Below, piece by piece: positions 35,366-63,459 of a stretch of 64,000 nucleotides of DNA. Source of the stretch: Pseudogymnoascus verrucosus (taxonomy: Eukaryota); assembly GCA_001662655.1 (NCBI GenBank), contig KV460250.1. One strand, 5' to 3'. The stretch's first letter is position 1; every line of letters begins with the position of its first letter. Below the pieces are notes generated by a model. It searched no databases. It saw only the letters and a program-made list of their open reading frames with translations, and had not been told where the DNA came from. A program made the translations under genes and the position numbers.

Positions 35366-38300
35366 ATGTCCGAATCTTTCCAAGAGCCGAATTTGAAGAA
35401 GAGGAGCATAGGTGCGAATGGAGAGAAGGGACGGGTAGGGGATAGCGGGGACGAGAAGAGGCGGCGGTTGGTGGGGGAGGACGGCGCGGTTAATGGGAAT
35501 GGGGCGAAGAAGATTTCGTTTGGGGATAACGGTGGGGGAGGGGCTGTGAATGGGAACGGGGCGAAAAAGACTTCGTTTGCTGAACCTACTGCTGTCAATG
35601 GGAATGGCGCAAAGAAGACTTCGTTTGCGGAGCCTGCTGTCAATGGGAATGGCGCGAAGAAGACTTCATTTGCCGAATCTCCTGTCAATGGAAATGGCGC
35701 GATGAAGATCTCTTTAGCGGAACCAGCATCACCGGCCTCTAGCAGTGTCAGTGGAGGGAAGAAGACATCAACGGAGGGAGCAGTGAAACTCGCGACAGCC
35801 CAAGTAAATGGGATCAAGAAGGCTGCGGCAGCTGAATCTGCAACTTCAAACGACGCCCCCAAACCATCACCCTTCGGCAAGAAACAAAAACCTACCGGTC
35901 TCGCCAACGGCGCCGCAGGGAGCCTACGCCCAAGCCAGCGCCTTCTCGACGAGAAAGAAAAGAAGATCTTCCAAGAGCGACGCAAGCTCCCCATCTGGCT
36001 GTCGGGGCCCGACATCAAATACGGACTCCGATACAAAGGCAACATTATGCTCCTCGCCGGTGAAACCGGAAGCGGAAAATCCACACAGGTCCCTCAATTC
36101 CTGATGAATGAGCCTTGGATGGTGCGCAAGAGCGTGGTCATCAAGGGGGAGGATGGGGAGGACAAGAGTGTCGCTGTGGGGGGTATGATTGCGATTACCG
36201 AACCCCGACGAGTTGCTGCGATTTCGCTGGCGCAGAGAGTGGCGGTAGAGACGGGGTCGTATTTGGGCCCGCATTGTAATGAGAGGGATAGGGTTGGGTA
36301 TGCGGTGAGGTTTGAGTCAAACGTGCCGAAGGGAGCGAAGATTAAGTTTCTTACTGAGGGGATGTTGTTGCAGGAGCTGCTGCGGGATCGGCATCTGAGG
36401 AAGTATAGTTGTGTTGTTGTTGATGAGGTTCACGAGAGGAGTGTGGATGTGGATCTTTTGCTGGGATTTTTGAAGAATATCCTTACTGGAGATTTGAGCG
36501 GGAGAGGTGGAATCCCATTGAAGGTTGTTATTATGTCGGCGACGGCAGATATCGAGAAGCTGCAGGAGTATTTCACGATTCCGGAAGCACTTCCTGCGCC
36601 CGCAACCACAAATGGCGGTGGTAAACAGCGCAAGACGAATGGAGTCAAGCCAACAGGCCTCATCAAGGAGTGGATTGCTACAACCTCTCCCCCACCAGAA
36701 GCTATCTTAGACGGCGACGATGATGAAGGACACCCAGCCACGGAATCAAGACGCTCCTCAGCATCCTCCTACTCCTCCTGGTCCGGCCTCAGCGACACCA
36801 TCAAAGGCAGCTCGTCCTCCGCTGCTTCCGCCGCCGCTTCCCCCGCCAGCTCAACTCCCACCTCCTCACCTGCCGACAATCTCGACACCACCGTCGCCGT
36901 CCCCTCAAAACCCGCCCTCGACATCTTCGATCTGAAGGGCAAAAACAACACAATAACCTACCGCATCTCCGGCCGCCAACACCCCGTCTCAACCCTCTAC
37001 GTCCCCGCCGCCCTCCCTGACCTACTCGAAGCCTCCTTCCGCACGATCTTCCACATCCACACTACTGAGCCCATGCCAGGCGACATCCTCGTCTTCCTCA
37101 GCGGACAGGATGAAATTGAATCTCTGCTCGCGCGCGTCGTCGCGCAGGCTGAGCAGTTGGTGAAGTCCTTCCCGCGATTGGAATGTACGCCGCTGTTTGG
37201 GCAATTGAGTATCGAGAAGCAGCAACTCGCTTTCGCGCGCCCGCTAGCTAAGAATGCGAGGAAGTGCATTTTGGCTACTAACATCGCCGAGACTTCTATT
37301 ACAGTCCCAGGTGTACGCTACGTCATTGATACGGGGAAGGCGAAGGTTAAGGAGTACCGCCCACACTTGGGCCTACAATCTCTCCTCGCCAAACCAATCT
37401 CGCAATCCTCCGCCATCCAACGCCGCGGTCGTGCTGGTCGTGAAGCCCCTGGAAAAGTCTGGCGTCTCTACACCGAGGAACAATACAACGCTCTCAGCTC
37501 CGTTGAACGCCCCGAGATTCTGCGCGCGGATGTCGTGGAGGCGGTGCTGAAGATGAAAGCTAGAGGCATCGACGATATTTTCAGCTTTCCCCTCCTCTCG
37601 CCCCCGCCAAGGGACGCGATGCTGAAGGCCTTGACACATTTAAATACCATTGGCGCCCTCTCTTCTACAGGGGAGCTGAATGAGACCGGAAGGACAATGG
37701 CACAGTTTCCACTTTCGCCGAACTACGCCCGCGTCTTAGTAGCAGCCTCGCGCACCTCCCCCGCCTGTCTCCTCGCCGCCATCGACGCGATTGCGGTGTT
37801 GAGTGGGGATGATATATTCATCCAGCCCACCTCTGAAGAAGCACGTCTCGCGGCCGAAGACGCGCGTAAAGACCTGTTAAGGCGCGAAGGCGACGTCCTC
37901 ACACAGCTCACGACGATGCAGAAGTATGTCCGCGAGGCGGCGGGGGAGAGGAAGAGGTGGTGTGGTGTTCGGGGTGTGAATGCCAGGCATATGGAGACGG
38001 GGATGTCCGTCCGTCGACAACTTCGCTCAGCGTGCGTGAGCGCAGGTCTGGTCAGCAGCACGGATATTTCCGAGCTCGATGACGCGGCGGAGGGGGAATT
38101 TATTCCAATGTCCGAAGAGGCCGGAGAAGAGCTGCTCAAGTGCTTTTTGAAAGCGTTTGTGAGCCGCACGGCCGTCCTCGGCGCCGACGGAGCGTATAGA
38201 ACGGTCAGGGGTAAACACGTGGTGATTGTGCATCCGAGTAGCGTTATGTTTGGACGGAAGAGGGAAGCAGTCATGTTTCTGGAACACGTTTTTACGAATA

Positions 38301-38377
38301 AGAATTATGCCAAGAAGTGTTCAGGGGTGCAGGCGGATTGGATTGCTGAGGTGTTGGCGGGAGAGGGAGAGGAGTGA
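35366..38377 (+). CDS. DHR2: DEAH-box RNA helicase, Dhr2/DHX33-like
   Basis: Motifs GETGSGKSTQ, TEPRRVAA, TEGMLL, DEVH, MSAT, ILVFLSGQ, ATNIAETSIT, QRRGRAGR and HPSS. Intronless; first ATG at 35366. The family is certain; orthology to Dhr2 is less so. Confidence 0.85.
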   Translation: MSESFQEPNLKKRSIGANGEKGRVGDSGDEKRRRLVGEDGAVNGNGAKKISFGDNGGGGAVNGNGAKKTSFAEPTAVNGNGAKKTSFAEPAVNGNGAKKTSFAESPVNGNGAMKISLAEPASPASSSVSGGKKTSTEGAVKLATAQVNGIKKAAAAESATSNDAPKPSPFGKKQKPTGLANGAAGSLRPSQRLLDEKEKKIFQERRKLPIWLSGPDIKYGLRYKGNIMLLAGETGSGKSTQVPQFLMNEPWMVRKSVVIKGEDGEDKSVAVGGMIAITEPRRVAAISLAQRVAVETGSYLGPHCNERDRVGYAVRFESNVPKGAKIKFLTEGMLLQELLRDRHLRKYSCVVVDEVHERSVDVDLLLGFLKNILTGDLSGRGGIPLKVVIMSATADIEKLQEYFTIPEALPAPATTNGGGKQRKTNGVKPTGLIKEWIATTSPPPEAILDGDDDEGHPATESRRSSASSYSSWSGLSDTIKGSSSSAASAAASPASSTPTSSPADNLDTTVAVPSKPALDIFDLKGKNNTITYRISGRQHPVSTLYVPAALPDLLEASFRTIFHIHTTEPMPGDILVFLSGQDEIESLLARVVAQAEQLVKSFPRLECTPLFGQLSIEKQQLAFARPLAKNARKCILATNIAETSITVPGVRYVIDTGKAKVKEYRPHLGLQSLLAKPISQSSAIQRRGRAGREAPGKVWRLYTEEQYNALSSVERPEILRADVVEAVLKMKARGIDDIFSFPLLSPPPRDAMLKALTHLNTIGALSSTGELNETGRTMAQFPLSPNYARVLVAASRTSPACLLAAIDAIAVLSGDDIFIQPTSEEARLAAEDARKDLLRREGDVLTQLTTMQKYVREAAGERKRWCGVRGVNARHMETGMSVRRQLRSACVSAGLVSSTDISELDDAAEGEFIPMSEEAGEELLKCFLKAFVSRTAVLGADGAYRTVRGKHVVIVHPSSVMFGRKREAVMFLEHVFTNKNYAKKCSGVQADWIAEVLAGEGEE
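35486..35725 (+). repeat. Coding tandem repeat, five units of ~(A/P)VNGNGAKKTSFAEP
   Basis: Visible in the translation and in DNA (units of 45-57 nt with synonymous divergence). Confidence 0.9.
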
Positions 38378-40312
38378 GTGAGGGGATGGGAAAGGGGAGG
38401 GGCGTTCCAGCGACTGTTTTAAGGGCATTGGGAGGTGTTTTTGTGTGGTTATGATACCATTTTATAGGGCGTTGGGAGCCGTCTATCTCGTGGAGAGGAC
38501 GCGGTGGAAGAAGTTGGGTTGAGAACTAGTTGTGCATACAAATGAAGCTGAACTTCGAAACACCTGCTTTGAATATCCCTCGACGAAGATAGAACTGCTG
38601 TCTAATATTACCAATCCCGTCCAACTCCACAAACACAGCCCTCTCATCAGTGCCCCCACTCCCAGCCCTGTCCCTCACAAACCAGAAAAAATGAAAAGCA
38701 GAGGGAAATAAGGAAAGAAAAAAGGAAATGCAAGATCCCGGAACATCTCCAGGAAGGATCTCAACACAGAAACGGGTCGAAACGAACAAACTCACCTCCC
38801 CGCCCTTGGTTTATTGAAACCGGTAAACTGCAGGTAGTTAGATAGGTAGGTACCCGCCCCCGCCACCGCCCCCTCCCCCAACTCGCGCGGAAAGACGGAA
38901 AGATTGGGGAGTGAGTGGACTGTTAGTTTGTTTGCTAACTATACAGTATACATAGTGCCTTGCCAGGGGAACTTCCTTACTTACCCTTCTCCTTCTCCGT
39001 TCCTTTCCCCTTCTTTCCCCGGACCGCGAACCTGAAAAGGAAACCCGACCCGAAAGGGAAAATGCACGTCTGTCACGGCAAGCGGATATCGAATAGCACT
39101 CTCATATTTTCATTTTAAGATACCTGTCAAAAAACCATAGAATTCTCGATTAGTCTACTTCCCCGATCGTCTGTCCCCGCCTCTCCCTTTTTAATATCGG
39201 CTGCTGCGCTTTCACGCTGTTACGCCTGCACATCATGATCCTACCTAACGGATCCTTCGCCTTGGCTTCGTCGCATCTAGAGCCCCGCCGTGGCACATGA
39301 ACGCTTCGCAAAACCATAACCTCGATTTGATCCCTGCTTTTTAGCCTTTCCGAGATAGCATGCAGTCCTTCAAGCGTCGACCTCGGGTTAATTAAAACGC
39401 GAAAATAGGCCGAGTTGCATTCTATATTGCGCCATAGGTCGAGGCTAGCTTGGATCCTGGAAATAGCGAGGCTGGTGTTAAGCATTGCTATGTCGAGGCC
39501 GTAAGACTACGTCAGATGGATCGCGGGGTAGGATAAATTACGTTGGAAGGATCAATTATGGTGCTCTAATTTATGGGCCTGATGTCAACATAGTCTGCGC
39601 AAAAAATTACTATACTATAGAGTATTTCTCTTGCTCGGTCTCTTATAAACGTGCCTGTTGGATGCTGTTGAGCGGGGTAGTGCACCTCTGCTGATCTAGT
39701 GCCGGCCGGGGGGGTAAGAAGGTCTCGGTAGTGGGTGCATATTCTCCACGGAAGCCGTTTAAAACAACGGCGACCTTCCCTTCTGTGTGTAGATGCATCA
39801 GGACATAGCTTAGCTTTCGCCTAGTGCTGACCCCCGACGAATGCAACTTAGATTCACTTTGACTTAGACGCAGGCAACTCGGTCATATTCCTACGTCTCT
39901 ACGAGGGCACAACAAAATACTAAGGAAGGTTGGAGTTTGACGGAACGTTACCTCCTACAGGCTGGTTTTATGAGTATCACGAGTCTCTGTTCGTGGTTCC
40001 TGTTCGTGTAATGCTAGAGAGACACGGACATAGTTACCTGTGCCGGTCCGACTGTACCCTAGCATAGGTAGAATCAGCATAAGATCTACATTCGAGTGCA
40101 TATTTATTACTAGGGGACGATTCCTGCTCCTGTAGACTAAATTTATAAAGAATAAAGCTTGATGGGTCAGGTGAAGATCATGAGAATAAGCCCATAACAC
40201 TTTGTTGCTTAAAACCCCACGATGTCGCTCCTTTCCTTGGTGCTTGATTAAGCTTCTCGTTAATCAGTTTAGAAGCCTTCCTGTCCCACTATTACCCCAC
40301 CAAATAGTCGAC

Positions 40313-41827
40313 ATGTTGTCACGACCATGCCTCGGCTACGCTATCGGGCTCACCCTAGGCCTTGTTGCCAAGGGTGTTAACGGTGCGCCCTGCGACATCT
40401 ACGCCACTGGCGGCACGCCCTGCGTGGCTGCCCACAGCACCACCCGTGCACTATACGACGCCTTCAACGGCGCACTCTACCAGGTGAAACGCGATGCTGA
40501 CGGTGCCACGACTGACGTTAAGCCTCTGTCTGCCGGTGGCGTTGCCAATGCCGCTACCCAAGACTCGTTCTGCGCTGCTACTACATGCCTTATCAGCATT
40601 ATTTACGACCAATCCGGCAAGGGTAATCACCTTACTCAGGCTCCTCCCGGAGGCGCAGCGAGCGGCCCGGACGCCAATGGCTTTGACTTCCTAGCTAGCG
40701 CCCATGGCGCACCTGTCACCCTGGGCGGTAAAAAGGCGTACGGCGTCTTCATCTCACCCTTCACCGGCTACCGCTGCAACACCGCCAGTGGCACAGCTAC
40801 TGGCGACGCAGCAGAGGGTATATACGCAGTCGTTGACGGGACTCACTATAACGGGGCCTGCTGCTTCGATTACGGCAATGCTGAGACCAACAGTCAAGAT
40901 ACTGGCAATGGCCACATGGAGACCGTCTACTTTGGCACCGGCGGTGGTAGTGGTGCCGGCAACGGCCCTTGGGTCATGGCCGATCTGGAGAACGGCCTGT
41001 TCTCTGGCGCTGACCGCAACAGCAACCCTGGCAACCTGCCACAGACTTCCCGATTCGTCACTGCAGTCGTTAAGGGGAACACAAACAACCATTGGGCGAT
41101 CCGTGGCGGTAACGCCACATCCGGTTCGCTGTCGACCCTTTACGACGGCGCGCGCCCAGACAGTAGCTACAACCCAATGAAGAAAGAGGGTGCTATTATT
41201 CTAGGCATTGGCGGCGATAATAGCAATTGGGCTCAAGGCACGTTCTACGAAGGTGTCATGACTACCGGTTATCCGTCTGATGCTACTGAGAACGCAGTAC
41301 AGGCTAATATCGTAGCCGCTGGATACGCTACCACGTCTCTTACCAGTGGCCCAGCGCTCTCTGTCGGCTCCTCTATCTCGCTGAGAGCTACAACAGCTTG
41401 CTGCACTGGAGACTACATTACCCATACCGGCTCCACCGTCAAGATCCAAGCCGTGTCGTCTTCAAGCCCTGACGCCCTCAGACAGCAGGCTAGCTGGACA
41501 GTTCGCACTGGCCTCGGCTTCAGCGGCTGCTTCTCGTTCGAATCCAAGGACACTCCTGGCAGCTTCCTGCGCCACTCCCAGTACACGATTGTCCTGAACG
41601 GTAATGATGGCAGCAAACAGTTTGCTGAAGATGCCACGTTCTGCCCACAGACCGGCCTCAACGGTGCCAGCAACAATGCTTTGCGATCCTGGAGTTATCC
41701 CACTCGCTATTGGCGCCATTTTAACGCGGTGATCTATATCGCAAGTAACGGTGGTCCTTTCGAATTTGATTCCAAGGTTTCGTTCAACGACGACGTGAGC
41801 TTCGCGGTTGGCGCCAGTCTTGCTTAA
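40313..41827 (+). CDS. abfB: Secreted alpha-L-arabinofuranosidase B (GH54 + CBM42)
   Basis: Signal peptide followed by PCDIY..TPCVAAHSTTRAL, CCFDYGNAE, DTGNGHME, MADLENG, GIGGDNS and GTFYEG. C-terminal arabinose-binding domain (FLRH, FAEDATFC, YWRHF). Intronless. Confidence 0.96.
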   Translation: MLSRPCLGYAIGLTLGLVAKGVNGAPCDIYATGGTPCVAAHSTTRALYDAFNGALYQVKRDADGATTDVKPLSAGGVANAATQDSFCAATTCLISIIYDQSGKGNHLTQAPPGGAASGPDANGFDFLASAHGAPVTLGGKKAYGVFISPFTGYRCNTASGTATGDAAEGIYAVVDGTHYNGACCFDYGNAETNSQDTGNGHMETVYFGTGGGSGAGNGPWVMADLENGLFSGADRNSNPGNLPQTSRFVTAVVKGNTNNHWAIRGGNATSGSLSTLYDGARPDSSYNPMKKEGAIILGIGGDNSNWAQGTFYEGVMTTGYPSDATENAVQANIVAAGYATTSLTSGPALSVGSSISLRATTACCTGDYITHTGSTVKIQAVSSSSPDALRQQASWTVRTGLGFSGCFSFESKDTPGSFLRHSQYTIVLNGNDGSKQFAEDATFCPQTGLNGASNNALRSWSYPTRYWRHFNAVIYIASNGGPFEFDSKVSFNDDVSFAVGASLA

Positions 41828-48251: not shown

Positions 48252-49259
48252 GGACTGACCTCTCTCCGCTTGCACGAAGGGTGTCGAGGTGTGCGTTTCC
48301 CAATGACGACAGTCACCTTCTCGGTGGAGGAAGGGTATGGAAGGTGTTTGTTCTCGTGTCTTTGAGGGTTGGCCTTTCGAGGCAGCGTCGTATTGTGCGT
48401 GCCGGGGTTTATGGTCGACTCGTCTGCTACCTCATGAGGGAAGGTTGGTGGTGACAGTCGACTCGGTGTTGTGGGAATTGTCGGTGAGGGTAGGATTGGC
48501 GGAGTGAGAGATGTCTTGAATAAAGTATTGAGTGCCCGGCGAGGGAGGTTTCACTCGGAGCGGGGGCAGTGTACTGTACGGGGTCCTCGAGGGTGGATCG
48601 TTCAGAGGAGAGTGTCTCTTGAGGCAGTGGGAGAGTTTCGTGAGGGGTAGTTGGCTGAGAGATGGAGGGAGGGGGAGAGAGAGTGGGAGGTTACTGTAGG
48701 TGAGAGGAACAGTATGGTGGAGGAAGTTGTAGAGTTCTGAGTAGAAGAGGAGGAGAAAGACAGAGAAAGAGGAGAAAGAGAGGTCACAGAAAGAGATCTG
48801 TCGGAGGAGGAGAGGGAGAGACAGGGAGAGAGAGAGGGTGGTAGGTAACGAGCGGAAGCGGGGGGGGGGGTTGTGGTGGTGGGAGTAGGTGGTTGTGGTG
48901 GTAAGAGGTGGTTTAGAGAGAGAGTACAGTACGGTTCAGTACTAGAGAGACGAGACGAGGGTAGCGACTTGTGTGTGTGTGTGTGTTGCGTAGATTTGGT
49001 AGTATGGCACCTATGTATACTAATAAATGTGTGGTGGTGTGTTTTGTGTGAGGGAGGGGAGAGAGTGCGTATGAGAGGATGTGAGTGGTGTGGTATGTAG
49101 TATGTAACTATCAGTAGTAAGAGTGGTAGTGAGTGGTAGTTAGTACAGATGAGCTATGTAGCTCTCTCTATAAGTCTGTTTGGTATGTGCACGGTCTGTG
49201 TGGACTACAGTGGTGGTGTAAGTGATGGTGGATTATACTAGCTAACGATAAGCAGCTAC

Positions 49260-49450
49260 ATACATAATCCATCGAAGGCACATATCGAGATACACATACA
49301 CATACGAATAGAGATTCACATACGCATAGAGATACATATATGCACACATAGAGATACACATACATACACGCAGCATACAGATACAGATACAGATACGGAT
49401 ACAGATGCACATACACCTAGGCATACACCTAGGCATACACCTACACAAAC
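49260..49450. repeat. Low-complexity microsatellite block: (ATACAG)n, (CATA)n, (CATACACCTAGG)x2-3
   Basis: Read directly from sequence. Confidence 0.8.
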
Positions 49451-52400
49451 ACATAATACTGTGTCAAGTACTACTCCGACACAATCATGCCGTGAGGGAC
49501 AGACAAGCTTCACGAAACAATAAGCTAGCTATACCTATAGCCTAGGTAGGGCACTCGTACACGCCACGATTCTCTATTCGTATTGCGAGTATTATAGGCC
49601 CTTACTCGTACAATACGATAGTAATCAGAGTACGTTCGGTCGACAGTCACGAGTACTCTACTACTACTACTAGTACTACTACTTACTACCACCACCAATA
49701 CTATAAATGGTAAAATGCACACTCTAAGTGCGTGCAGGACAACAAGGAACGGACGGCGGGCGACGGGGGGTTCCAAGGCGGTTACATACAAATACAATTT
49801 AGACCGAATACATACATTTTAGACGGAAGACCACTCCTCTAGGACTCACTCGAGACTCCACGTTACATACGACGGGCGTGACGGGAGAGCGAGTTAGGAG
49901 ATATGTACCCTACAGTATGTATGTACTGCACGATATGTCACTGCTACCAACACCATTACTGGGAATACTGTCACTCTGATATTCCTACCACTCATTCTGT
50001 CACTCTCTGCCAATACTCCCACTTCTACCACTTCTACCACTCCAACCACTCCAACCACTCCTGCCAATTACTCCCACTACTGTCACTCCTGCCAACTAAC
50101 TCCCACTCGCACGCCCTGCCACTACCATCCATCAGCACTTCCCCAACCACTCGGTCGTGGCTGCTAGTACTAACCAACGGCGGTGGTTGGCGTCGATGGC
50201 CGAGTGGTTGGGTCGATACCTCCCTCCTCGCTGCTGCTGGTTAGCACGACCCCTTCACACCCCACCACCACCCACCACCGCCGTACTAAGTTACCCTCCC
50301 CTCCCCTCCTCTCTTCCCGTCCACTCCCGTCATCCAACATAAGACAACGCCCAGTCCCCCAAACCGGACTCGGAAAAAGAAAACGTCAGACAATCAAGCA
50401 AAAAAAACCGGCTGTGAAAAAATAAATAAAAAAGGAGCGGACCCTGGCAAGAATAAGAAGAAGAAGGAAAAATGTGTTCGAAACACCCGGCGCAACGCAC
50501 AGCTGCATCCGGTCGGTGGTCCTGGCTCGTCTCGTCACATTTTTTTACAATTCGACACACTCAACCCACATACCATCGCCCGATTCAGGAGTTTGATTGA
50601 GAGCGAGGAGCGACTAGGCGGCGACGACCGAAAATTGGCATGCAAGGTAGGTGAGGAGGTAAAGTTGGACACCGCCGTACAGGCGAGACAAGGTCAGCTC
50701 AGCCGGACAGGGCAGGGCAGGGCAGGGCCATTTCGTGCTCTTCCTGTTTGCTGTACTGTGCTCTGTACATACACTTCTGGTGATTCCACCTCGTAAGGTA
50801 AGTTAGGTTAGCTGCTTCTGACAGGTGCTGCCCGAGCCCAACCCAGCCAAGGAAGGCAAACTATTTTTTTAAGACAGGTACGGGGGTAGGGAGGTGGGTA
50901 ACTTGATCTAAGGTTGAGGTTGTGTCTGTCGTCTAAGGTGAGGTTGAGGTTGTCGTCAGGCACGGTGGGGATGAGGCAAGACGACCTAACGGAGATGGAT
51001 GTGAAGGGAGGAGGAAGACCGACCAGCCTCGTTGACGAGTCAACTCAACTCCACCACTCTACTCTCTACTCTCTCTGCAATGCCACGTCTCACACTCACT
51101 CGGCATAGGTTGGAGGATGGGAAGGGCGAGGATGCATTTGATGACTGGCCTATATAGGTTATATGAGTGAGTGAGTGAGTGAGTGAGTGAGTGATACTCG
51201 CATCGCATCGCAGTGACCGGTGGGATGGATGGGCGTCTCGTCAATACATACTACTTCCATACCCACACATACCTACCTCCTACATACATACATACATACA
51301 TAATAACTCGGCGTACTATTTTTTTTTCCCTTTCTCCCTCCTCCAACAGCGACGGTGCAATACATGGATATCTTCCCCAATATCCCCTCCCCTCCCTCCC
51401 AGATCGCCATCCGGGTCTTCCTTCCGCAGCCGTCACCTCCTCCGCCCCTCGCTCGGACTTTATGTCTTATCGCCTCCGCGCTGGCCAACAAGGTGTCGAG
51501 AAGCTGGCACGATAAGGGCGGAGGTAAGTCCGACAGTGATCACCGAGCTCCACTTTCTCGGTCTTTGGTGTTGTTCTTGTCTGTAGGGGATCCGGAGGAG
51601 GACTGGGATTTTTGGGTGTATTTCGTCACTACTGGTGCTACTGGCAGGGAGGTGGAGGAGGTGAGGTGAGGTCGACGCAACGGGTGGGGGAGGAGGTAAT
51701 ATCACGGTCGGTGGGAGAGGACGGTCGGTGGTGTCTATCTATACTGGTGTGTTTGACGCTGTTTGAAGTACATACGACGGTTCAAGTCTGTATATGCTAT
51801 ACTTTACCAACTGTACCATCATCCACCATACACCCACATCCACCACCACCACCACCCGTCAGCATCAGCACAATCCACAATCCACCATACACAAAACTAC
51901 AATACACGCACGCCCAAGACTCCCCAAAAATGACATCCCATCCCATCCCATCCGCTCCTTACGCACGCACAAACGCACATCCTCGCGCCTTCCGGCGAAT
52001 GTACGATGTACTTACTTACTTACTTACTTACATACCTACAAACACACATCCCACCCCATCCCTATCCCCATCCCGTCCGTCTATCCCGTACATACAAATC
52101 CAATACTTATACATACCACACATACCAACTCCCTCCGTCTTCCCCTCCGTCTTCCCCGCCGTCTCCCGTCTCTCCCTCCCCGTGTCACAGTGGCGTCATG
52201 CCTCCTCCCTTCCAGCCAGCCAGGCAGGCCTCTCTCGTCTCATCCGCCTCGTCTTGGCCATAGGAGGGGAAATACGACACAGTACCACAGCAATACAAAA
52301 GGCAACGATGACAGACTCCCTTACCCTACGCATGCAGTTCCCCATCCATCCATTCACTCCGTCACATTCCTCCTCCTACTGCTACCACTACTAATCAATA

Positions 52401-53900
52401 ATCCCCCTCCTCACCCAGCCAAGCCATCCAGCATTCCCATCCGCCTTGCCTCGCCAGGTCCATAAGAAGCCCGCCTGCGCCCGTCGCCCGTAACACCCCT
52501 CCCCCCTCCTCTCCTCCGCTCACAACTCACATACTGTATTCTCCACTCCCCACTCCGCCTCCTCCGTCCGCTCCCTCACGTCGCGAAACCCGCAACCCGC
52601 AACCCGGGCGACGTAACCGCCCCCATCTCTGGTATCGTAACACACGTCACTGAAGGGAGGGGTTGGTGGGTTTGTGATAGGGTCGGTTTGTGATATCGTC
52701 GGTGATACCGTTCGCGCTCGCAGTGGTGGGCATAACAGGTAGCCGTGCCTATCTGTCTGTCTGTCTACTACAGTATAATACCTTTCGCTTCTACAATGGC
52801 TGGGCTGGGCTGAGTCGGTCGGTCTACATAACCCCGCGCGCACGCCCGCCGGCCTGGCCGCCCGCCACCTTCTCCCATGCCCTGCTGCCAACGCGGGACT
52901 ACTACACACACCGCCGACACGGTGTTTGCGCATCCCGTGCGCGGCGCGCGTCACCTGTACGCACCGCACAGCGCCATAGTGGCGAAAAGCCCATGGATAG
53001 GATGGAAAAGCCTGCGTCTCTAATGAGGAACTATTGAATTGAAGCCAAGACGAGGACGTCGGATTGACTCTTTTAAGAGGTAAGTGGGTAGGTAGATAAG
53101 GCAAGGTAAGGTAAGGTATGTTTGCTCCTCTCCGTCCCCTCTCTCTCTTCCCCCCGTCTCGCCCGTCGATCGTCCGTCGATTCCGTATATACATACAGAC
53201 ATACATACATAAACACGCACCAACCAACTAAATACCCATCTACCACCCATCCCCTCGCTGCACCAGACCGACCGGTCGGCTGGGATATCCGCCACACTGC
53301 TTGTACCCGCCACCACCAGCACCGCTGGAAGGAGCGGGTGCTGCTGTGTGTGGTTGGTAGTGAGGGATCGTCGGTAGGTCGGCTGGCGGCGTGCGGTGCG
53401 GGGATGGAGGAGCACGGCGGCGGAATGGGGGGATGGAAATGCATGCTACTCCTCTAGGAGAGAGTAGGTACAACAGTGGGTATTCGCTAGTTAAGTTAGT
53501 AAAGGTTGTGTGTGTGATGGAGGGGAGAGGATGGATGGGGTTTCTTGGGATTGTGGTTGTGTATGTGTGAGCTAGATGGAGTGTGGTGGGTGGGTTGTAT
53601 ATACTATATAAAGCAGAGGCAGTGTCTAGTTCTGTTTGGTCATGAGGAGGATTGCTAGATATATACGTGTCGTGCTGTGTATACTAAGAGAAGGAGATTC
53701 TAAAGGAACGAGCGATATCTCTCACCATTGCTCCTTCCCTCAGGACAAAAGGGAGAGCCACCATTTTATACAACTCCCACACAGCAACGCGACCCAATGC
53801 ACGCCCCCTATTTACTTAAACAGTGATCAGATGGCAAACCCATCCATTCCAGAGATTCAAATAGAACTTGTAAAGTTTCTACTAACACAAAAATAATCTA

Positions 53901-56900
53901 TCAAACAGCCCACCGCTCAACAACCTCAGCAAGCGTATCATCACCCCCAACGTTCCCAGGAAACACAATATACGGCACCCCCTTATGCCTCGACGTCTCC
54001 TCCTCGCATCTCCAGATCGGGACGCCCAGCGCTGCTTGCCCGAGGATCATGGCGCGCTTCATATTGAGGCCTTTTGTTGCTGCGTCGGAGGAGGTGATGC
54101 CGCCCTGTTTGTTCGGGTTAGTAAATTTGAAAGCTCTGTAATCGGAGAAATATGGTGGGATGGGGATAGGAAAGGGGGAGTTGAGCTTACCTTGGCGATC
54201 ACATATCGCGGCCGGACTGTGATATTCTCCAAAACCTTTACTAACGCAGCAGCGACGACCCCACCGATTTTTAGACTCGAAATCGCGTCTGAGCCGGTGA
54301 CGAGACGCCGCGAGGTCATGACTAGAACATCCTGCCCCTCTCCTAGTTTGACACTAGCTTCCTGGAATGCGTTTGACACCACCTCCTCCGCCTTCGGTCC
54401 CTCCCCAACCAGCGTCCCAACATCCAGCTCAATGACATGGAGTTTCCCCCCTCTCCGCTCCCTCAACGACGCAAGCTGCGCTGTAGTCTTAGGGACGTAG
54501 GAGCCGGCGATGACGAGCCCGCCCGTAGTAGCGACGCCGGAGTGGTACCCCATATCCAGCTCCTCAGCCGACATGGGTGCTTTTCCAGCTATCCCGAGGC
54601 GCGAGGAGACGAACGCCGCGCCGGTGCGGTAGAGATACCTCTTTCCCTGCTGCTCAGCGCTGATTGCTCCAGCTGCGAAGACGGCCATATCCGACTCCGC
54701 CGCCGCGTTGACGACGACCACGCTCCCCCTCGGTATCTGGAGTAAGCGCTCCGCTACCTTCTCGGGGCCACCGAGGCGGATGTCGGAGAGGGTTATGGAG
54801 AAGATGTCCTTTGGGTTGAATCTTGCGCCGGATTTCTCGATGATGTAGTCCCGGAGGCTGGAGGATGCGTATCCGAATGTCGCGTCTTGTGCAAAGGGGG
54901 TCTGGCTGGCGGGGACTAGGACCTCCTTCTCGGCGACGTAGTGCACGTCGTCGATCGTGTATCTGCCGCCCTGGTAGAAAAAGGGTGCGAGGATCCAGGC
55001 ATCTACCTCTCCAAGCACCTCCTCCGCGCTCTCGAGCTCCTCGAGGAAGTGCCCGCGGAGTGTAGAGTCCCCGCGGAGAACAATCTGGAAGGTCTTGTTC
55101 GTCTCTGCAGCGGCTTTGGCTAGGTTTTGGCAGATCTCGGAGATGAGGATCTCGGCTTCGGGACCGGGGAGGGCGCGCGAGTTGGTGAGGATGAAGAAAC
55201 CGCCCTTTGCTGATTGGAGTTCTTTGCAGAGGGTGCTGTGGTCCCAGACGGTGAGGACGGCGATGTCGTGGCAGGTTTGGGTGCCGGTTGGGTCGTCGTC
55301 GAGGGCTATGACGAGGGGGGTTGAGGGGTTGTCCACTTGGGATCGGATGGTGGAGAGGATGTCGTCTGCTCCTCCTGCTGCTGGGGGGAGGGAGGCGAGT
55401 GTCTCTTTGAGGGGGAGGGGAGAGTATTCCCTGGGTTTGTGAGTGGGAGCAGCAGGTGTCTTTGCGCTAGAGGAGACCGAGACACCGGTCATGAGTTCCC
55501 ATACTCGGACGACGCCGCCGTCGGCGTCTTTGGACCAGCCGTGGGATTCCCCCATGAGGTAGAGTTGGTGGGCTGCGGCGGTGAGGGGGGAGGCGTATGT
55601 TAATCTCTTTGCTTCATCGAGGACGATTCCCTGATTATTTAGTTAGTTTATAATCTAACTCATATGTATTTATGGGGGGACGACTTACCAAATCCTTCAC
55701 AAAAATAGCAAGTTGACTATGAGGCGTCCAATCCGCATTGAGCATAGCAGGAACGCGATTCTCAAACATCCAGCTCCCGCCAGCGGCATTCTTGATGATC
55801 TCGTACAGATTAGCTGTATCCAAGCCCAGTTTGGCTCCGAATGCCATGGCCTCTGCTGCTGCTGCGATGTGCACTCCGGCGAGGAGTTGGTTAATCAGCT
55901 TTACCGACGATGCGGCGCCGACACCTTCACTGATTCGATGGAGGTTCGTTGCTTGGCCGCTCATGGCTGTGAGGATTGGACGGGCTTTGGAGAGGGCTAG
56001 CTCGTTTCCGGAGGATATGATCTAGAACATTTTTAGTTGGTGGTGATTGATGGATCTGGTTTGGGGTCCAATTTACCGTAAGTTCACCCTTTGCCGCCCT
56101 CGCTACCCCGCCACTGACTGGGGCGTCGATTAACTCTAGTCCCTTTCCTAAACTCGATAGCTGTGTTGAGAGATCCCTGACAGCCGTTGGAGATACGGTA
56201 GAGTTCAGTATAACAATCGATCCCTCAGGAAGTGACTTGGCGGCAGCCCCAGCTCCAAACAAAACATCCCCGGCTTGGGCAGCATTTTGGACCATGAGGA
56301 CTAGTACCTCTGCCTCCCTAGCTGCTTCAGCTGGCGATGTAGCTGCTATTGCTTTGCCACCGCCGGCAACAAACTTCTGAATCGATGGCTCGTAAACGTC
56401 GTACCCCCAAACGTTGAATCCTGCCTTCACGAGGGAGGTTGCCATTCCGACACCCATTGCGCCTAGGCCAACGAATCCCACTTTGGATATCTCGAAGGGG
56501 GTCGCTGACGGAGTGAGCACGTCGGGTTGAAGAGTTGCTAACTTTGAGCTCTCGTGCACTAATGTGGGCGTTGACGGCGTGAAAATACGTACGATCCCCG
56601 AGTCATCCTCGCGCCCGAAGCCCTGGGATGAAGCAGAAAGGTAGAGTTGTTCTGCCACCGAGGAGAGCGGGACTGGGAAACCGTGTGACCGTGCGGAGGA
56701 GGTGACGATGCCCTACATTTATTCAATTTAGACTGTGGAAATTAGAATAGACGATGAGGGGATGTAACTCACCATGTCTTTGACGAAGATATCCAATGCT
56801 GAGTATGGGGTTAGATCATTGTCTAGCATATGCGGTACTCTGTTCTCGAACATCCAACTGCTCCCAGCTGCGGTCAGGATTATATCGTATACTTGTCGCG

Positions 56901-57576
56901 TGTTCAATCCGGCTTTCGCGGCGAGGCCCATCGCTTCGCCGGCCGCGGCGATGTGGATTCCGGCGAGGAGTTGATTGACCATCTTCACATTGCTCGCAGT
57001 GCCGATTCCACCGGGTATAATGTATAATTTTTCTGAAAGGAGCTTGAGTACTTCGTGGCCTTGTTGTAATGCTGATTCTGTACCGGCTGCTAGGATTGTG
57101 AGTTTTCCTTGCGAGGCTCGGACGGTTCCTCCAGAGACAGGGCTGTCGATTAGATGGATATCTGATCGGTCCATATAATCTAGCTTCTGTTGAACGGATT
57201 TTAAGAATGTTGCTGGTACTGTCGAGCATAATATGACTGTTGAGTTTGTGGGCAGTGCTACATTATGTTACAATTTGGCCCAGTCTTCCCATGGATGCAT
57301 GCTCATACCTTGGACAGCTCCATTCGCCGAATCGAACAATACTGATTCAGCTTGCTGTGAGTTTGTGACCATGCAGATTAAATATTGATTTCCCCTCGCA
57401 GCCTCTTTAGGAGACGATGACACCCCTCCTCCAACTGCCCTGAATTTCTCCAGGGAGGGTTCGTAGACATCGTAGCCAGTTACATTATGGCCCTCTGAGA
57501 CTAGATGAGATGCCATTCCAAGCCCCATTGCACCTAGCCCAGCAAAGGCAATGTTAAGGGCGCTACTTGACGCCAT
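53901..57576 (-). CDS. Fusion protein: two tandem beta-hydroxyacid (3-hydroxyisobutyrate/L-threonate-type) dehydrogenase modules plus a DUF1537 four-carbon acid-sugar kinase, 1121 aa
   Basis: Module 1: GLGAMG, DSPVSGG, VKMVNQLL, FENRVP, FVKDMGIV. Module 2: GLGAMG, DAPVSGG, VKLINQLL, FENRVP, FVKDLGIV. Kinase: LDDDPTGTQ, RGDSTLRGH, GGRYT, AKGGITSSD, FPGNVG. Five canonical introns (57258-57308, 56713-56772, 56022-56076, 55631-55688, 54105-54190) leave 3366 nt in one frame. Confidence 0.92.
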
Positions 57577-57838
57577 GATCGTGTGGTGTGTGTAAGTAAT
57601 TGTGTGTTGATAATACAAGCACGACGATGGTCGAGGTTATAATGAAGGCTGTATGTAAGTGAACTTGAACATAGAACAGGGTATAAGAAAGGACTTGAGA
57701 GGAAGAAAACAGAAAGAAGAAAATATATTTAAATATACTAACCATGCACAACCTCCGTAAAGTACAGTACCATTCCTTGGGAGGTTTTTCTTAACTTTAC
57801 TAATAAAACGTTAAAGTTGAGGTTGTTATCGTCAATCT

Positions 57839-58035
57839 CGGTGTTCCCTCCGCGATGGTGGCAGTTGGCAGGAACGAACGCTTAGTCAGCATCAGCTAGC
57901 CCCGCAGTGTACCCCGCAGTGTGGCCAAATTGCGGACTTCATCCCGAGAACCATCAACCAACAAGTTTGCTTTCTCGTGCATCTTCTCCATCCATTTTGT
58001 GTTTGCCTTGCTAACGTACATCGGCCTATCCACCG
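57839..58035. promoter_or_regulatory. Three CGG-N8-CCG elements (putative Zn2Cys6 dimer sites) in the divergent promoter
   Basis: CGGTGTTCCCTCCG 57839-57852; CGGACTTCATCCCG 57933-57946; CGGCCTATCCACCG 58022-58035. Confidence 0.65.
57900..57922. promoter_or_regulatory. Tandem putative CreA/Cre1 sites (11-bp direct repeat)
   Basis: CCCCGCAGTGT at 57900-57910 and 57912-57922; the reverse complement GCGGGG fits SYGGRG. Confidence 0.45.
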
Positions 58036-58166
58036 CGAAACAAAAGAGGCCTTGATTCGACCTGCAGGACACCCGGCATCATCGAGCCTAAGAAAATCGC
58101 CCTAAACGCGATAGTGGTATGGCTTTGGAATCGGAGATAACAGGCTAGAAGCGTCCACGCTCTAAG

Positions 58167-60480
58167 ATGGACAGCATCTCTCCATCTTCAGTAGCCCATT
58201 TGGGCGCCAGCATCCATAGTAGCGATGGGTCGTCTCGTGTGCCGAAGATATCGAGAAAGGTTCACGCGTGTACAGAGTGCCAAGCTCGAAAGATCAAATG
58301 CGATGTTAATCCACCACAGCGTTCCATATGCACTCGCTGTTCTAAGAAGCGGGTTCGCTGTGTAGTTAATAAGAGTCTACAGTCTCTTATAGGCGAGGAT
58401 ACAGAGTACGTCATGTAACGTTTTCTTTATTACTTTGTTAAGGAGATGTGGGGGGGATTCTTTTCAAGGCTATTTCGATATAGTCTTATCATCGTTTAAT
58501 TTCATGTCATGTTATATGGAGTAGGAACGTCTTGAATATGATAGCATTCAATCATATATTTCTTGAGTTTAGAGAGTCAGTCTAGTTAATTTATCTTCAT
58601 ATATTAATTATATATAATGCTCGGCTTACTGACAATACAATTTGATTAGATGGAAGACCACTATGGAAGAAAACAGTCAGACTCTGTCTCTCGCAGTGTC
58701 CAAGATCTTAAGCGTGTTAGAGCTTCCCTCTCTAGAATCATTTGCAGCGCAGCTACAACACAACCAGCTACAGCACAGCCAGCCACAGGCGCAACAAGCT
58801 GTCACCAGAAGTATCGAGGCTCCTGATAGGTCGAGACCCTTCCGAACATCAGGCATGGCCATGACGCGCGAGAATTCGCAAGAGCCGACCCAAAGCAGAG
58901 CAGATACTCTTGTCACTGACCCTATGGGAGCTTTGTATGAAGTAACCAAACTGAGAAATCTCCGGAGCAACAACCTCCATGGGCATGCTTACGCTGCCAG
59001 GCCAACAATTTTAGAGGACGATTTTATCTCCAAGGGCAAAGTTAGCGAAGCTGATGCTGAAGAATTGTTTCGAACCTTCAGTACTTCTCTCAATCATTAC
59101 CTGTGGGGTGGTATTGGTCTCGTCCATGACAACCTTACTTCTGTGCGACGGTCCTCAACTCTATTGCTAGCAGCCATTTTCACAGTTACAGCACTACACG
59201 TACCCGGGAAAGAGCAGGTCTTTGATATCTGTTATGCCGAATTCACGGCACTTGTTTGCGATTCCATGTTTGACCGATATCACACGTTGGACGGTATTCG
59301 AGCTCTTTGCATTGGCGCGTTCTGGCTTTCAGACGTTAGTTGTATGGAGCCCCATAGCCAAGAGGACTTTGTCAGATTCGAATGCTAACTATACACCACA
59401 GGGAAGCTTGCCGGCCACGCAGTTAGAATAGCGACAGAGTTAAATCTGCATCAGAGCTATTCTCGAGCGATGCGAGGCTCACGGGAGCATTTCGAGGGTG
59501 CGAGGCTGTGGTACTTTATATACGTTTGCGATCACCACTTCAGTATCGCCTACGGTCGACCGCCTGTTATTCACGAAGATGCGACGATTACAAACCATGA
59601 GAAATTTTTGAACCTGCCAGGAATCACACAAGCTGACTACCGCCTGCACAGCCAGGTTTCCGTATTCATTATCCTAACAAGAGTTTACAATACCTTTGGG
59701 CCAGATATTGAGCAAGTGGTCGCTGAGGGAGATTTGATACTCTTACGTCAATTCAACCACGCGCTTGATAGTTGGCGATTGCACTGGGAGTCCCGACTCA
59801 CCCCTAACCCTTTCATCGCAACGTACCCTGCAAAGGGAGTCGTTCTGCACTATCACTTTGCAAGGCTGCAAGTGAGCTCACTGTCCTTGCGTGGGATTCA
59901 GAAAGACGGCATGCACGACTTGACCATAGATCGGCGAGACCTAGCGAATACCGCCATTGCCTGTGCTACTTCCATCCTCCAGACTGTCCTGGATGAACCC
60001 GGCATCCGGAACTCCGTCGTCGGTGTGCCAATCTACCTCCACACTATGATAGCGTACTCTGCGGTCTTCCTCCTGAAAGTGCAGCAGAAGTGGAAGGCGT
60101 ATAATCTTAGCGCCGATGCTACTCTAATCCGAGATCTTGTGATGAGAATCATACGGCTTTTGCTCGATGCCAGAGCAGGTGAACGGCATTTATCAAGTCA
60201 TATCGCTACCGGCTTGAGTAAAATGTTGGACCGTTTCACATCATGGGAGGCAGGAGAGAAATCGAGGAATCTCCTTGTGGATTCGGGACGAATAAGCCAA
60301 GATGATCCAAACAATCCGGCAGCGCAGATGTGGGAACCAAACTATGCGATTTCTGACACTGGAATTCTTCGCATGTTCGATTCTTCAGTGCCGTTCTACG
60401 ATGAGCATTATTTCCCCTTGGGCTTTTTCGATGTAATGTCTGCTGGCCAGACGGATACCGAGTATCGACATCGGGAATAA
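58167..60480 (+). CDS. Zn(II)2Cys6 transcription factor with fungal middle-homology region, ~669 aa
   Basis: ACTECQARKIKCDVNPPQRSICTRCSKKRVRC, plus AVRIATELNLH and RLWYFIYVCDHHFSIAYGRP. Introns 58406-58649 and 59342-59401. Confidence 0.94.
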
Positions 60481-60734
60481 ATGGACGAACGTGAGACTCA
60501 CGAGGAGCTCTTGGAAGTCAACAGTGGAACGCCACAAATTAGAGGAAGCAACACTTCCTCGACTATTAATCTCCATGGAGATTTAAATCTTGTAGAATAA
60601 GTAATAATGTTACATGTACCGAGGTCCTACCTAGATCCCAATTCCAACTGACTGGACCCGCAAACCAATGCTCTGGGCTCTTTGACATCACATCAGCTTG
60701 ATTGGCCCCTCGCAGTTCTGTCCGTGGCGGAGTG

Positions 60735-60748
60735 CGGTGTTCTGTCCG
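60735..60748. promoter_or_regulatory. CGG-N8-CCG element upstream of the MFS permease
   Basis: CGGTGTTCTGTCCG, 12/14 identical to the element at 57839. Confidence 0.65.
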
Positions 60749-61032
60749 AGATCCCAATGTCCCCCTGTTGGCATTTTGATTTAGTGTCAGCGCCATTCCA
60801 CTAAAACGCGGGGAAAGCACCAAGAGTGGGTCATATATCCCCCCGTCAAATACTTACCCCAGGGCTAGACTCCGCATTACTTTCCCGCCCCAACTGCCGC
60901 CATGAATAGATAAAGACGAGACAACGTCTACTTTTTGAACATTCATTGAAGAGGTCAATCTCGTCATGACAGCATCTTTACCCTTTTTGAAATATTAATA
61001 CTACACACACTTCGATTTTAAACAATTTCGCA

Positions 61033-62637
61033 ATGGAGGAGTCGAAGGACAACGCCCTTCATGTCGAGATGACAACTACCATTACCAAGGGAGATGGCGC
61101 GACGGAGGAGGAGATCCAGTTGCAAGAAGCTCTGAGCAATTATATTCCAGACACCGACGCGGAGAAGAAGCTTGTACGGAAAATCGACATGCACTTAATG
61201 CCAACTCTCTGGGTTATGTACATTCTCAACTATGTTGATCGAACAAATATTGTAGGTAACATTGTTGCTTTGCTTTTTGGTACACTAAGCTAACATATTT
61301 GGTAGGGGAACGCAAGAATTGCTGGAATGGAGGACGACCTGAATCTTGATGCCCAGAGTCAGTATTTTCACTTCATCAGTTGCCTCTAAAACATACTGAC
61401 GCGTGTAATAGAATACGCATGGGTTCTCTCCATCTTCTTCTTTGGTTACCTCATCATGGAAGTGCCGTCCAACATGATTCTCAGTCGAAGCCGTCCCTCA
61501 ATATTTCTTCCTTCCATCATGCTAGTATGGGGAGCAATGAGTGCCATCATGGCCTGCGCTCCGAACTACGGATCCATGCTCGCCTTCAGATTCATCCTCG
61601 GCTGCATCGAGTCTGGCTTCTTCCCCGGCGTGCTTTTCGTCATGAGCTGCTGGTACAAGGCAGCAGAGATTGGAAAACGATTTGCCATATTCTACAGTGC
61701 TGCTGTCCTATCAGGGGCGTTCGGTGGCCTTCTAGCTGGCGGTATCACCAACGGTCTCCACGACGCGCACGGTATTGCCGGGTGGAGATGGCTTTTCATC
61801 ATTGAAGGCGTCGCAACAGTCGGAGTAGCCATCATCGCAAAGTTCATCCTCCTCGACTTCCCTCACAGCTCCCCAGTACTCACCCTCGAAGAGCGCCAAC
61901 TAGCCACCGTTCGAATCATTGCAGACAGCGCGGTATCAGGCTCCGCATCCGGCTCATCTAGAGACGACCGACTTTCCCACTGGGAAGCCTTCAAGGCAGC
62001 CGCCACCGACCCACGCACATACTCTTTCATGCTCCTCTTCGTCCTCGACGTCGGCGCCGGCACAATCTCATATTTCATCCCCACCATCACCAAGTCATTG
62101 GGCTACGACACCGTCAAAGCGCAGTACATGACTGTCCCCGTGTACGCCGTCGCCACAGTCTGCCTCAACATCTGCGCCTTCTCCGCCGATCGCCACGAGG
62201 AGCGAAGATGGCACATCACAGCCGCTCTCTCCCTAGGATTCATCTGTGCCATGGTCTGCGCCATCGTCGAGACACCCGTAGTCCGCTACGTCATGCTCTG
62301 CTTCGTCGCCTCTGGGATCTGGAGTGCGCTCCCTCTCATCCTCGCATGGGCATCCAAGACCATTGATCTTCCGGCCGAGAAGCGCGCTATTGCGATCGCG
62401 ATGATCAACGCTGTTGGTAATCTGTCGTCTGTGTATGGGAGCCAGATCTGGCCTACTAAGAGCGCTCCGCATTATACTCTGGGCTGGGGTATAACGGCTG
62501 GATTCCTGGGTGCGGGTGCTTGTGTGGCTGCTCTGATGCCAGTGTTTATTAAGTTCGTCCCGAATAAACCGACTAAGGCGGAACTTGCGTTGAAGGAGAG
62601 GGGTGAGAGGATGATGGCTGAGGCTGCCGCTTTGTAA
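61033..62637 (+). CDS. MFS anion:cation symporter family permease (Dal5/Tna1-like), ~498 aa
   Basis: Motifs EKKLVRKID, NYVDRTNI|GNARIAG, EVPSNM, ESGFFPG, AFGGLLA, GWRWLFIIEG and KRAIAIAMINAVGN. Introns 61252-61305 and 61358-61411. Confidence 0.93.
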
Positions 62638-63459
62638 GAGACGATGTACCGTTTGGTATGGCGTGATATAGTGTGATATTGTAAATAATTCAATGCGTTA
62701 TTAGCGTTTAAAAGGAAATACTGCCTAAACTTCAATATTTTTGTGTCCCACGCCCTCCTTGTCTAATTCAAGCCCACCCGTACAAGACTCCCTTCATGGC
62801 TATTCAGACCAGCCAATACATTCAGATAGAGTTGTATCGAAATTGCATATCTAGGGGCATCCGCTCTACTATTAGCGATCAATTCTTGAATATGTAGGGC
62901 CATAGGAAAAAAGGCCCAAGGGTGGTGTTTGTAGGCTCGATGGTGGGGGTGAGTGGGTATGAAGGAGAAGCTGTGGATTGATGCCGTGAATTAGATATCA
63001 TCAATTAGAGGCTGCGATGGTAACCATGTTTAGTTGAATGGGGAGGAATGGCTTCGTTAAGGCTTGGGGCAATGCTTTCGTCCCTTTTTGGGGCTCCTCC
63101 GTGCAGGTCTGTAGTTTGTTAACCGTGATGGAAAGCCAGTTTGAATACCATAACAGCAAGAACTCAACGAAAGATGCAGTCAAGTCAGTAATCACAGCAT
63201 CCCACTCCCAGAGTCCGGAAAACCACAGTGTGGATAGTAGCAAAAAATGGATATAATATTTTTGTGTTTCTTTCTTTCTTTCTGCGCCGTTGACTTTACA
63301 ACTTTGGTTTGTTTGTTTGTTTGGCTGGTTCGTGCTCCCCGCTCTAAATCAAACTTTCGATAATACTCTTACCATCCGCTTTCCGCTTTCCCCCGTCCCC
63401 CAAACCGACAAAAAAGATTTATATTTTCCTTTCCTCAGACACTAACACATATCTCCCCT

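Follow-up and report, generated by a model that had tools for sequence, protein, structure and literature searches.

A putative acid-sugar utilisation cluster in Pseudogymnoascus verrucosus joins an LTD-type dehydrogenase-kinase fusion gene with its own regulator and permease

L-threonate is a major end product of ascorbate (vitamin C) breakdown in plants, and it can therefore be expected to occur commonly in the rhizosphere, in litter and in infected tissue. Bacteria have known routes for its use, and since 2025 there has been genetic evidence of one in Arabidopsis. In bacteria, a three-step pathway consists of LtnD, 2-OtnK plus 2-OtnC (as PMC12540250 and PMC12994016 summarise from Guo et al. 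2024), and a four-step pathway of LtnD, OtnI, 3-OtnK and 3-OtnC (Zhang et al. 2016, in the summary given by PMC12540250). The Arabidopsis protein LTD (AT1G18270, named for its "L-threonate metabolizing domains") is laid out as LtnD1-LtnD2-OtnK-OtnC, in its knock-outs all L-threonate dehydrogenase activity is gone and L-threonate builds up, and its kinase domain shares only 18.5% identity with E. coli 3-OtnK (PMC12540250). LTD was termed unique and conserved in land plants, and the words "fungi" and "fungal" do not occur in the main text of that paper (PMC12540250). Here, we analyzed a window of 64,000 nt (the whole stretch of DNA studied) on contig KV460250.1 of the soil fungus Pseudogymnoascus verrucosus, in which a cluster of three genes at 53901-62637 encodes a fusion of two LtnD-like domains with a DUF1537 kinase, a Zn2Cys6 regulator and a permease of the major facilitator superfamily (MFS). 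The three genes very probably form a co-regulated acid-sugar utilisation cluster, and the architecture of the fusion protein points to L-threonate as its probable substrate.

The fusion gene (53901-57576, minus strand) consists of six exons (57576-57309, 57257-56773, 56712-56077, 56021-55689, 55630-54191 and 54104-53901) separated by five GT..AG introns of 51-86 nt, and its coding sequence (CDS) of 3366 nt contains no internal stop. Exon 5, encoding 480 aa, was 100% identical at full coverage to P. verrucosus VE01_08150 (1121 aa); the complete spliced model is likewise 1121 aa long, and both sequences agree by eye. In the protein, the Pfam domains NAD_binding_2 and NAD_binding_11 occur twice, with SBD_N plus NBD_C (DUF1537) after them. 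LtnD-like domain 1 (56578-57555, minus strand; aa 8-296) spans introns 1 and 2 and includes NAD_binding_2, NAD_binding_11 and a stretch matching NF043037, the NCBIfam model of L-threonate dehydrogenase. LtnD-like domain 2 (55472-56487, minus strand; about aa 327-627, with limits borrowed from related models) spans introns 3 and 4 and carries a second NF043037 stretch together with Pfam matches. The DUF1537 acid-sugar kinase domain (53931-55309, minus strand; aa 682-1112) includes SBD_N and NBD_C and spans intron 5. The protein ends nine residues past NBD_C, with no C-terminal F_bP_aldolase domain. An original prediction made from this DNA had described a fused dehydrogenase-kinase; the fusion was confirmed, while the single dehydrogenase turned out to be two LtnD domains in tandem.

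The whole fusion protein reached 654.6 bits with NF043037 in two stretches, compared with 331 bits for the runner-up family. In beta-hydroxyacid dehydrogenases, GxGxMG is the NAD-binding motif, and motifs with Ser, Lys and Asn form the substrate site. The motifs GLGAMG (which fits the GxGxMG pattern), PVSGG and VK..NQ are present in both LtnD domains, the last one as SNVKMVNQ in domain 1, and all are invariant or almost so among 12 fungal orthologues. The identity between the two domains is 52%. Both of them are conserved, with many more invariant columns in domain 2 than in domain 1 across the same orthologues. Since this enzyme family is habitually dimeric, we would guess that the second LtnD domain serves as an intramolecular pseudo-dimer partner.

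In the kinase part, SBD_N (PF07005) scored 177.8 bits (cut-off 25) and NBD_C (PF17042) scored 58.5 and 54.6 bits on two exons (cut-off 28.3). The N-terminal motif DDDPTGTQ and the C-terminal motif GGITS have catalytic roles in this family. DDDPTGTQT and KGGITSSD are invariant in the 12 fungal orthologues, and when 13 bacterial relatives were included in the alignment, DDDPTGTQT was still invariant and the GGITS columns were at least 90% conserved. Judged by these matches and motifs, the domain belongs to the DUF1537 four-carbon acid-sugar kinase family. Within the part coding for NBD_C, an 82-nt stretch (54362-54445) has the same length but a diverged sequence in the contigs of two of three close relatives (X2 and X4), which makes it a local hot spot where the strains diverge.

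The regulator gene (58167-60480, plus strand; exons 58167-58405, 58650-59341 and 59402-60480; 669 aa) is divergent from the fusion gene, with a promoter of 590 bp (57577-58166) between both start codons. The permease gene (61033-62637, plus strand; exons 61033-61251, 61306-61357 and 61412-62637; 498 aa) comes next, and its promoter of 552 bp (60481-61032) extends from the regulator stop to the permease ATG. This is the arrangement originally predicted, namely three tightly spaced genes with gaps of 590 and about 550 bp, the enzyme divergent from the regulator and the permease following, and the coordinates and orientations were likewise correct. The regulator matched Zn_clus with 33.2 bits (cut-off 21) and has the cysteine pattern CX2CX6CX9CX2CX6C; its Fungal_trans match of 19.3 bits is under the cut-off of 23, with 23.4 and 24.8 bits in orthologues, and the position of its intron 1 is kept in two distant orthologues. 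The permease appears to be of the organic-anion (ACS-like) type and matched MFS_1 with 111.8 bits. Its best NCBIfam model, on a scan of exon 3 (407 of 498 aa), was TIGR00893, the D-galactonate transporter subfamily, at 178.5 bits versus a cut-off of 395.

All three cluster genes are transcribed, and splicing joints were obtained for two of them, the fusion gene and the permease gene. The evidence comes from contigs of run X13, whose label "RNA?" is a guess and which we took as RNA because its contigs carry splice joints. In the fusion gene the joints 54103|54190 (two contigs) and 55629|55688 (one contig) correspond to exact removal of introns 4 and 5, both permease introns were spliced out in one contig, and the regulator was covered at 58983-59217 and 59797-60062. 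As contigs, these data document transcription and splicing only, and neither expression levels nor co-induction can be read from them.

JGI metagenome contigs were scanned with the aligned 12 fungal orthologues, and those with a full-length gene and enough flank were counted (L001, L003 and L004); L002, L005 and L006 were left out, as these contigs end inside or right beside the fusion gene. The nearest named protein was from Cadophora for L001 (88%) and from Hyaloscypha for L003 (75%); L004 comes from a distant lineage, because no named protein is closer than about 55%. The fusion proteins of the three loci are 61-67% identical (best segment) to that of the window. All three contigs have a regulator orthologue in divergent orientation to the fusion gene, and a permease orthologue with 70-76% identity follows the regulator in two (L001 and L004); in L003 an aldo/keto reductase (AKR) gene stands in its place. 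The cluster linkage is thus conserved in distant fungi, the lack of which had been named in the original prediction, beforehand, as grounds for rejecting it. Single DNA contigs of three close relatives also span 53400-63400 colinearly, save for the diverged 82-nt stretch and a replaced stretch near 63000, which adds little depth.

An AKR gene adjoins the cluster in both L003 and L004, AKR-kinase fusions occur in some fungi, and a link of AKR with the cluster was considered. This link was rejected: no significant similarity was detected between the two AKR fragments, and that of L003 aligned to the fused AKR of the protein P0104 with 19% identity and an E value of 0.022. By these comparisons, the adjacency in L003 and L004 is probably due to chance.

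The two cluster promoters share a candidate regulator site of the form CGG-N8-CCG. One copy, CGGTGTTCCCTCCG (57839-57852, plus strand), lies in the divergent promoter, upstream of both genes, at a distance of 263 bp from the fusion ATG and of 315 bp from the regulator ATG; the other, CGGTGTTCTGTCCG (60735-60748, plus strand), lies 285 bp upstream of the permease ATG. The predicted shared promoter motif is therefore borne out by these two sites, whose core recurs in orthologous promoters. Allowing up to one mismatch, CGGTGTTCNNTCCG has only two matches in the 64 kb, both in cluster promoters (expected 0.33; at least two matches in 5 of 100 shuffles), and CGGTGTTC-NN-TCCG occurs within the window in the two cluster promoters only. 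Generic k-mers shared by the divergent and permease promoters were not above shuffles, and the promoter signal consequently comes down to this one site. A degenerate copy, CGCAGTTCTGTCCG, is present in the permease promoter at 60711-60724. Two direct repeats were also seen: CCCCGCAGTGT in the divergent promoter (two copies 12 bp apart, 57900-57922) and GTTCTGTCCG in the permease promoter (two copies 24 bp apart, 60715-60748), the latter corresponding to the full and the degenerate CGGTGTTC site.

Because the motif had been picked after viewing the two promoters of the window, it was tested on the independent loci L001, L003 and L004. L001 contains two copies of CGGTGTTC in 20.8 kb, one in the divergent and one in the permease promoter, and L004 has one in the permease promoter and one inside the regulator CDS. 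The only copy in the 17-kb contig of L003 (462-475) lies 230 bp upstream of the AKR open reading frame (ORF; 692-1393) at the permease's position. Altogether, three of six orthologous intergenic regions (3,377 bp) carry three matches, compared with a mean of 0.098 in 20,000 mononucleotide shuffles, none of which reached three; outside these regions there were two sites in 53,384 bp. All five promoter sites point the same way with respect to the regulator and permease genes, and the distance between site and ATG ranges over 263-285 bp in the window and is about 270-276 bp in L001. These results are good evidence for a shared cis-element in the cluster promoters, and they make it reasonable to propose the CGGTGTTC site as a candidate for the sequence that the clustered regulator binds.

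That the three genes are neighbours by chance, with no functional link among them, is scarcely credible against this background. A gene order kept at 61-67% fusion-protein identity, with the regulator at three of three loci and the permease at two of three, argues against it, as does the concentration of the specific 8-mer CGGTGTTC in cluster promoters; what agrees with it is that generic promoter k-mers do not exceed shuffles and that contigs cannot show co-induction.

The relatives of the fusion gene were then compared with plant LTD. Exon 5 was used as query, and the best 120 longer homologues were considered. Of these, 98 lack PF01116, and all those with organism names are fungal; 94 of the 98 have the LtnD plus kinase layout, and they come from Leotiomycetes, Sordariomycetes, Dothideomycetes and others. 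Within this set the fusion enzyme is widespread in Pezizomycotina, plant pathogens and endophytes included. The other 22 have a C-terminal PF01116, with 42-47% identity, and the named ones are all from land plants; these plant proteins represent LTD. An incomplete copy was seen in the early-diverging Gonapodya. In a quick maximum-likelihood tree of 71 kinase domains, midpoint-rooted for drawing only, the fungal and plant kinase domains formed one clade with an SH-aLRT support of 94. Outside it fell 54 metagenome rows, apparently bacterial, and one more metagenome row, L065, joined the eukaryote side. LtnD1 and LtnD2 of plants and fungi are pairwise 49-59% identical, which does not settle their one-to-one orthology.

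Some fungi, for example Microdochium bolleyi, possess a paralogous DUF1537 kinase in which a C-terminal aldo/keto reductase replaces the N-terminal LtnD domains (P0099 and P0104), and the stretches L007:10001-11410 and L010:277-1689 belong with this observation. These AKR-fused fungal kinases fall within the fungal kinase clade, and six bacterial kinase relatives adjoin an AKR gene, which suggests a second, uncharacterised reductase-kinase module. In Magnaporthe (M.) oryzae, MGG_00039, described as "Ketose-bisphosphate aldolase class-II", showed an induction of 7.8-fold in rice and of 8.8-fold in barley 72 hours post inoculation (PMC3037901, Table 2). Its product name is common among database orthologues of the fusion gene, and the gene is given here as a lead only.

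The arrangement suggests the following route. The ACS-type permease would import L-threonate, one or both LtnD domains would oxidise it with NAD(P)+ to 2-oxo-tetronate, and the fused DUF1537 kinase would phosphorylate this product at C4; oxidation and phosphorylation would then correspond to the opening two reactions of the bacterial three-step pathway. The phosphorylated keto-acid would be turned into dihydroxyacetone phosphate (DHAP) and CO2 by an enzyme whose gene lies outside the cluster; the F_bP_aldolase-type decarboxylase with which plant LTD and the bacterial three-step operons end has no counterpart here. The Zn2Cys6 protein may activate the set by binding sites that resemble CGGTGTTC-NN-TCCG and lie 260-290 bp upstream of both the enzyme and the permease gene, and through the site in the divergent promoter it may also regulate itself. 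An uptake-oxidise-phosphorylate scheme of this kind had been proposed in the original prediction, and the present data support it. We favour L-threonate as the likelier substrate on account of the fused LtnD domains and the plant orthologue.

The original prediction had offered L-threonate, D-erythronate or D-apionate. L-threonate gained from the match to the LtnD model and from plant LTD, and D-apionate was dropped as the main option: the bacterial apionate route uses a GFO/IDH/MocA-type oxidoisomerase and not LtnD (PMC12994016), and neither such an oxidoisomerase nor a transketolase-like partner was found in the window or the fungal loci. The same architecture and regulon might nevertheless have a different acid sugar as substrate, for example D-erythronate, D-threonate or some related C4 or C5 acid, or the two LtnD domains might differ in specificity and feed one kinase. 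DUF1537 kinases at 36-50% identity occur in many bacterial contexts, the only curated kinase model matched, weakly, is that of D-threonate kinase, the two LtnD domains are only 52% identical and both conserved, and the title of ref. 44 in PMC12994016 mentions substrate diversity among LtnD homologues. Set against this, the fit of both LtnD domains to the L-threonate dehydrogenase model is about double that to any other model. Known kinase routes for D-threonate and D-erythronate have PdxA-type partners, and neither a partner of this type nor a GFO/IDH/MocA oxidoisomerase lies at the cluster. The only studied member of the architecture, plant LTD, is tied to L-threonate (PMC12540250). On balance, we regard a different acid sugar as unlikely.

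The genomic contexts of the bacterial kinase relatives bear on the same question. At 36-50% identity they occupy many contexts, and for this reason the kinase subfamily alone does not fix the substrate. Even so, the kinds of partner proposed for the fungal route recur beside them. LTD-type F_bP_aldolase genes were present in 14 of 66 metagenome loci (directly adjacent in 13) and in 12 of 80 genome loci, and full sets of LtnD, kinase and aldolase were found in L018, L020, L066, L118, L127 and L149. Among the 80 genome loci, LtnD-like genes occurred in 10 and ACS-like MFS permeases in 9, and TRAP/TctA uptake systems also adjoin the bacterial relatives. Aldolase_II (PF00596), the decarboxylase type of the E. 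coli four-step route, was found in 0 of 138 neighbouring ORFs. In three loci (L015:400-2250, L037:2712-4484 and L057:1174-2940) the kinase gene is preceded by a long ORF ending in a universal stress protein (Usp) domain, and the kinases of these three form one tight clade.

Several points weigh against L-threonate use by this cluster. Halving the NF043037 score gives each LtnD domain about 327 bits, just below the equivalog cut-off of 350. The sole curated kinase model matched is that of the D-threonate kinase, with 53.5 bits, and the kinase is remote from every curated model; the D-threonate kinase DtnK equivalog (NF047819) itself was rejected as an assignment, its cut-off being 450. A single-sequence search of PDB with the kinase gave no match, and a profile search returned remote DUF1537 structures only, the best being 4xfm at 46.9 bits. 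The key forks of the kinase tree, a quick midpoint-rooted one, stand at 94, below the 95 mark. Other bacterial kinase contexts include AKR, OtnI-like, Iso_dh, transketolase and GFO/IDH/MocA genes, and ref. 44 of PMC12994016 points by its title to substrate diversity. No fungal member has been tied to L-threonate by experiment. As for the regulon, the motif was chosen after the fact, neither L003 nor L004 carries the exact CGGTGTTC 8-mer in its divergent promoter (that of L003 has nothing closer than two-mismatch versions), and L003 has no permease after the regulator. Finally, the third pathway enzyme, a decarboxylase, is neither in the window nor in the three fungal loci, and no named fungal protein figures among the 120 best of 6135 short matches to the plant aldolase domain, a list that does not extend to weaker relatives and so cannot establish absence.

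How the fungi would complete the route was pursued in the same data. No remnant of an aldolase was detected in the window at E <=10 or in the fungal loci at E <=1, and no OtnI-like or Aldolase_II gene was found in either. The best 120 of the 6135 aldolase-domain relatives consist of fragments from plants and of unnamed proteins about 281 aa in length. We put forward, tentatively and as a possibility rather than an expectation, that the fungal L-threonate pathway ends with an enzyme unrelated to 2-OtnC and 3-OtnC that is unlinked to the cluster but belongs to the CGGTGTTC regulon, and that the LtnD-LtnD-kinase core is shared by plants and fungi, through old common descent or transfer, instead of being a land-plant invention. 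If true, a module common to plants and fungi would revise the published idea of LTD arising with rising ascorbate in land plants.

A further explanation concerns the physiological role: the enzyme might clear endogenous threonate or erythronate, as salvage or damage control, with the permease used for export or for an unrelated anion. Arabidopsis LTD does act on the plant's own L-threonate (PMC12540250), and L003 retains the enzyme and regulator without the permease. A dedicated regulator and a permease with the same promoter site, kept across distant fungi, speak for utilisation instead, and bacterial kinase relatives adjoin ACS-like permeases and TRAP/TctA uptake systems. An enzyme, a pathway regulator and a permease together are the usual layout of nutrient-utilisation clusters. 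We therefore consider endogenous clearance improbable and retain uptake and utilisation of L-threonate as the preferred interpretation.

The remaining genes of the window appear unrelated to the cluster. Directly past the permease, a gene of the calnexin/calreticulin family starts at 63460 (minus strand); the others are an alpha-L-arabinofuranosidase B gene (40190-41824, plus strand), a DEAH-box helicase gene (35093-38374, plus strand), a TauD-family dioxygenase gene (27067-28243, minus strand), a sugar transporter gene (6251-7926, plus strand) and an aldehyde dehydrogenase gene (2-1719, plus strand). The region of about 5 kb downstream of the fusion gene (49000-53900) contains low-complexity Pro/Thr/His-rich frames only and no Pfam-matching ORF, and its GC content rises to 0.62 near 52500-53000.

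In the full-text literature searched, which leaves most subscription journals outside, there was no report of a fungal L-threonate pathway or of a fungal version of this fusion, in line with the original statement that no characterised fungal pathway was known. The novelty is lowered by the plant counterpart published in 2025. In the locus, an enzyme and a transporter come together with a dedicated regulator and its candidate binding site as a concrete, testable set of parts, and the conserved CGGTGTTC site offers a handle for a genome-wide search for the missing gene. The plant LTD architecture described as "unique" has a fungal sister without the aldolase domain, which raises the questions of how fungi finish the pathway and where the fusion arose.

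Compared with the bacterial three-step pathway, the locus likewise combines a dehydrogenase with a DUF1537 kinase and has no isomerase; there, however, the enzymes are separate operon genes together with the decarboxylase, whereas here two dehydrogenase domains and the kinase are one polypeptide and the decarboxylase is not linked. With the four-step pathway it shares the LtnD-type first step and a DUF1537 kinase, and it differs in that the window and the fungal loci contain neither an OtnI-like nor an Aldolase_II gene. Fungal utilisation clusters with a Zn2Cys6 regulator and a permease are known, the quinate cluster being an example. The present cluster differs from those described in its predicted four-carbon acid-sugar substrate and its enzyme type, none of which was found in the literature searched, and it resembles them in having the enzyme, regulator and permease genes side by side, a divergent promoter and CGG-type sites. 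The closest counterpart is Arabidopsis LTD, with the same module order of LtnD1, LtnD2 and DUF1537 kinase: both proteins match NF043037 twice, the kinase exon is 42-47% identical to plant proteins and the kinase domains fall in one clade. Unlike LTD, the fungal protein stops at the kinase without the F_bP_aldolase (2-OtnC-like) domain, and its gene is clustered with its own Zn2Cys6 regulator and permease. By domain content and kinship, then, the fungal protein is an LTD-type relative without the aldolase domain, embedded in a putative regulon.

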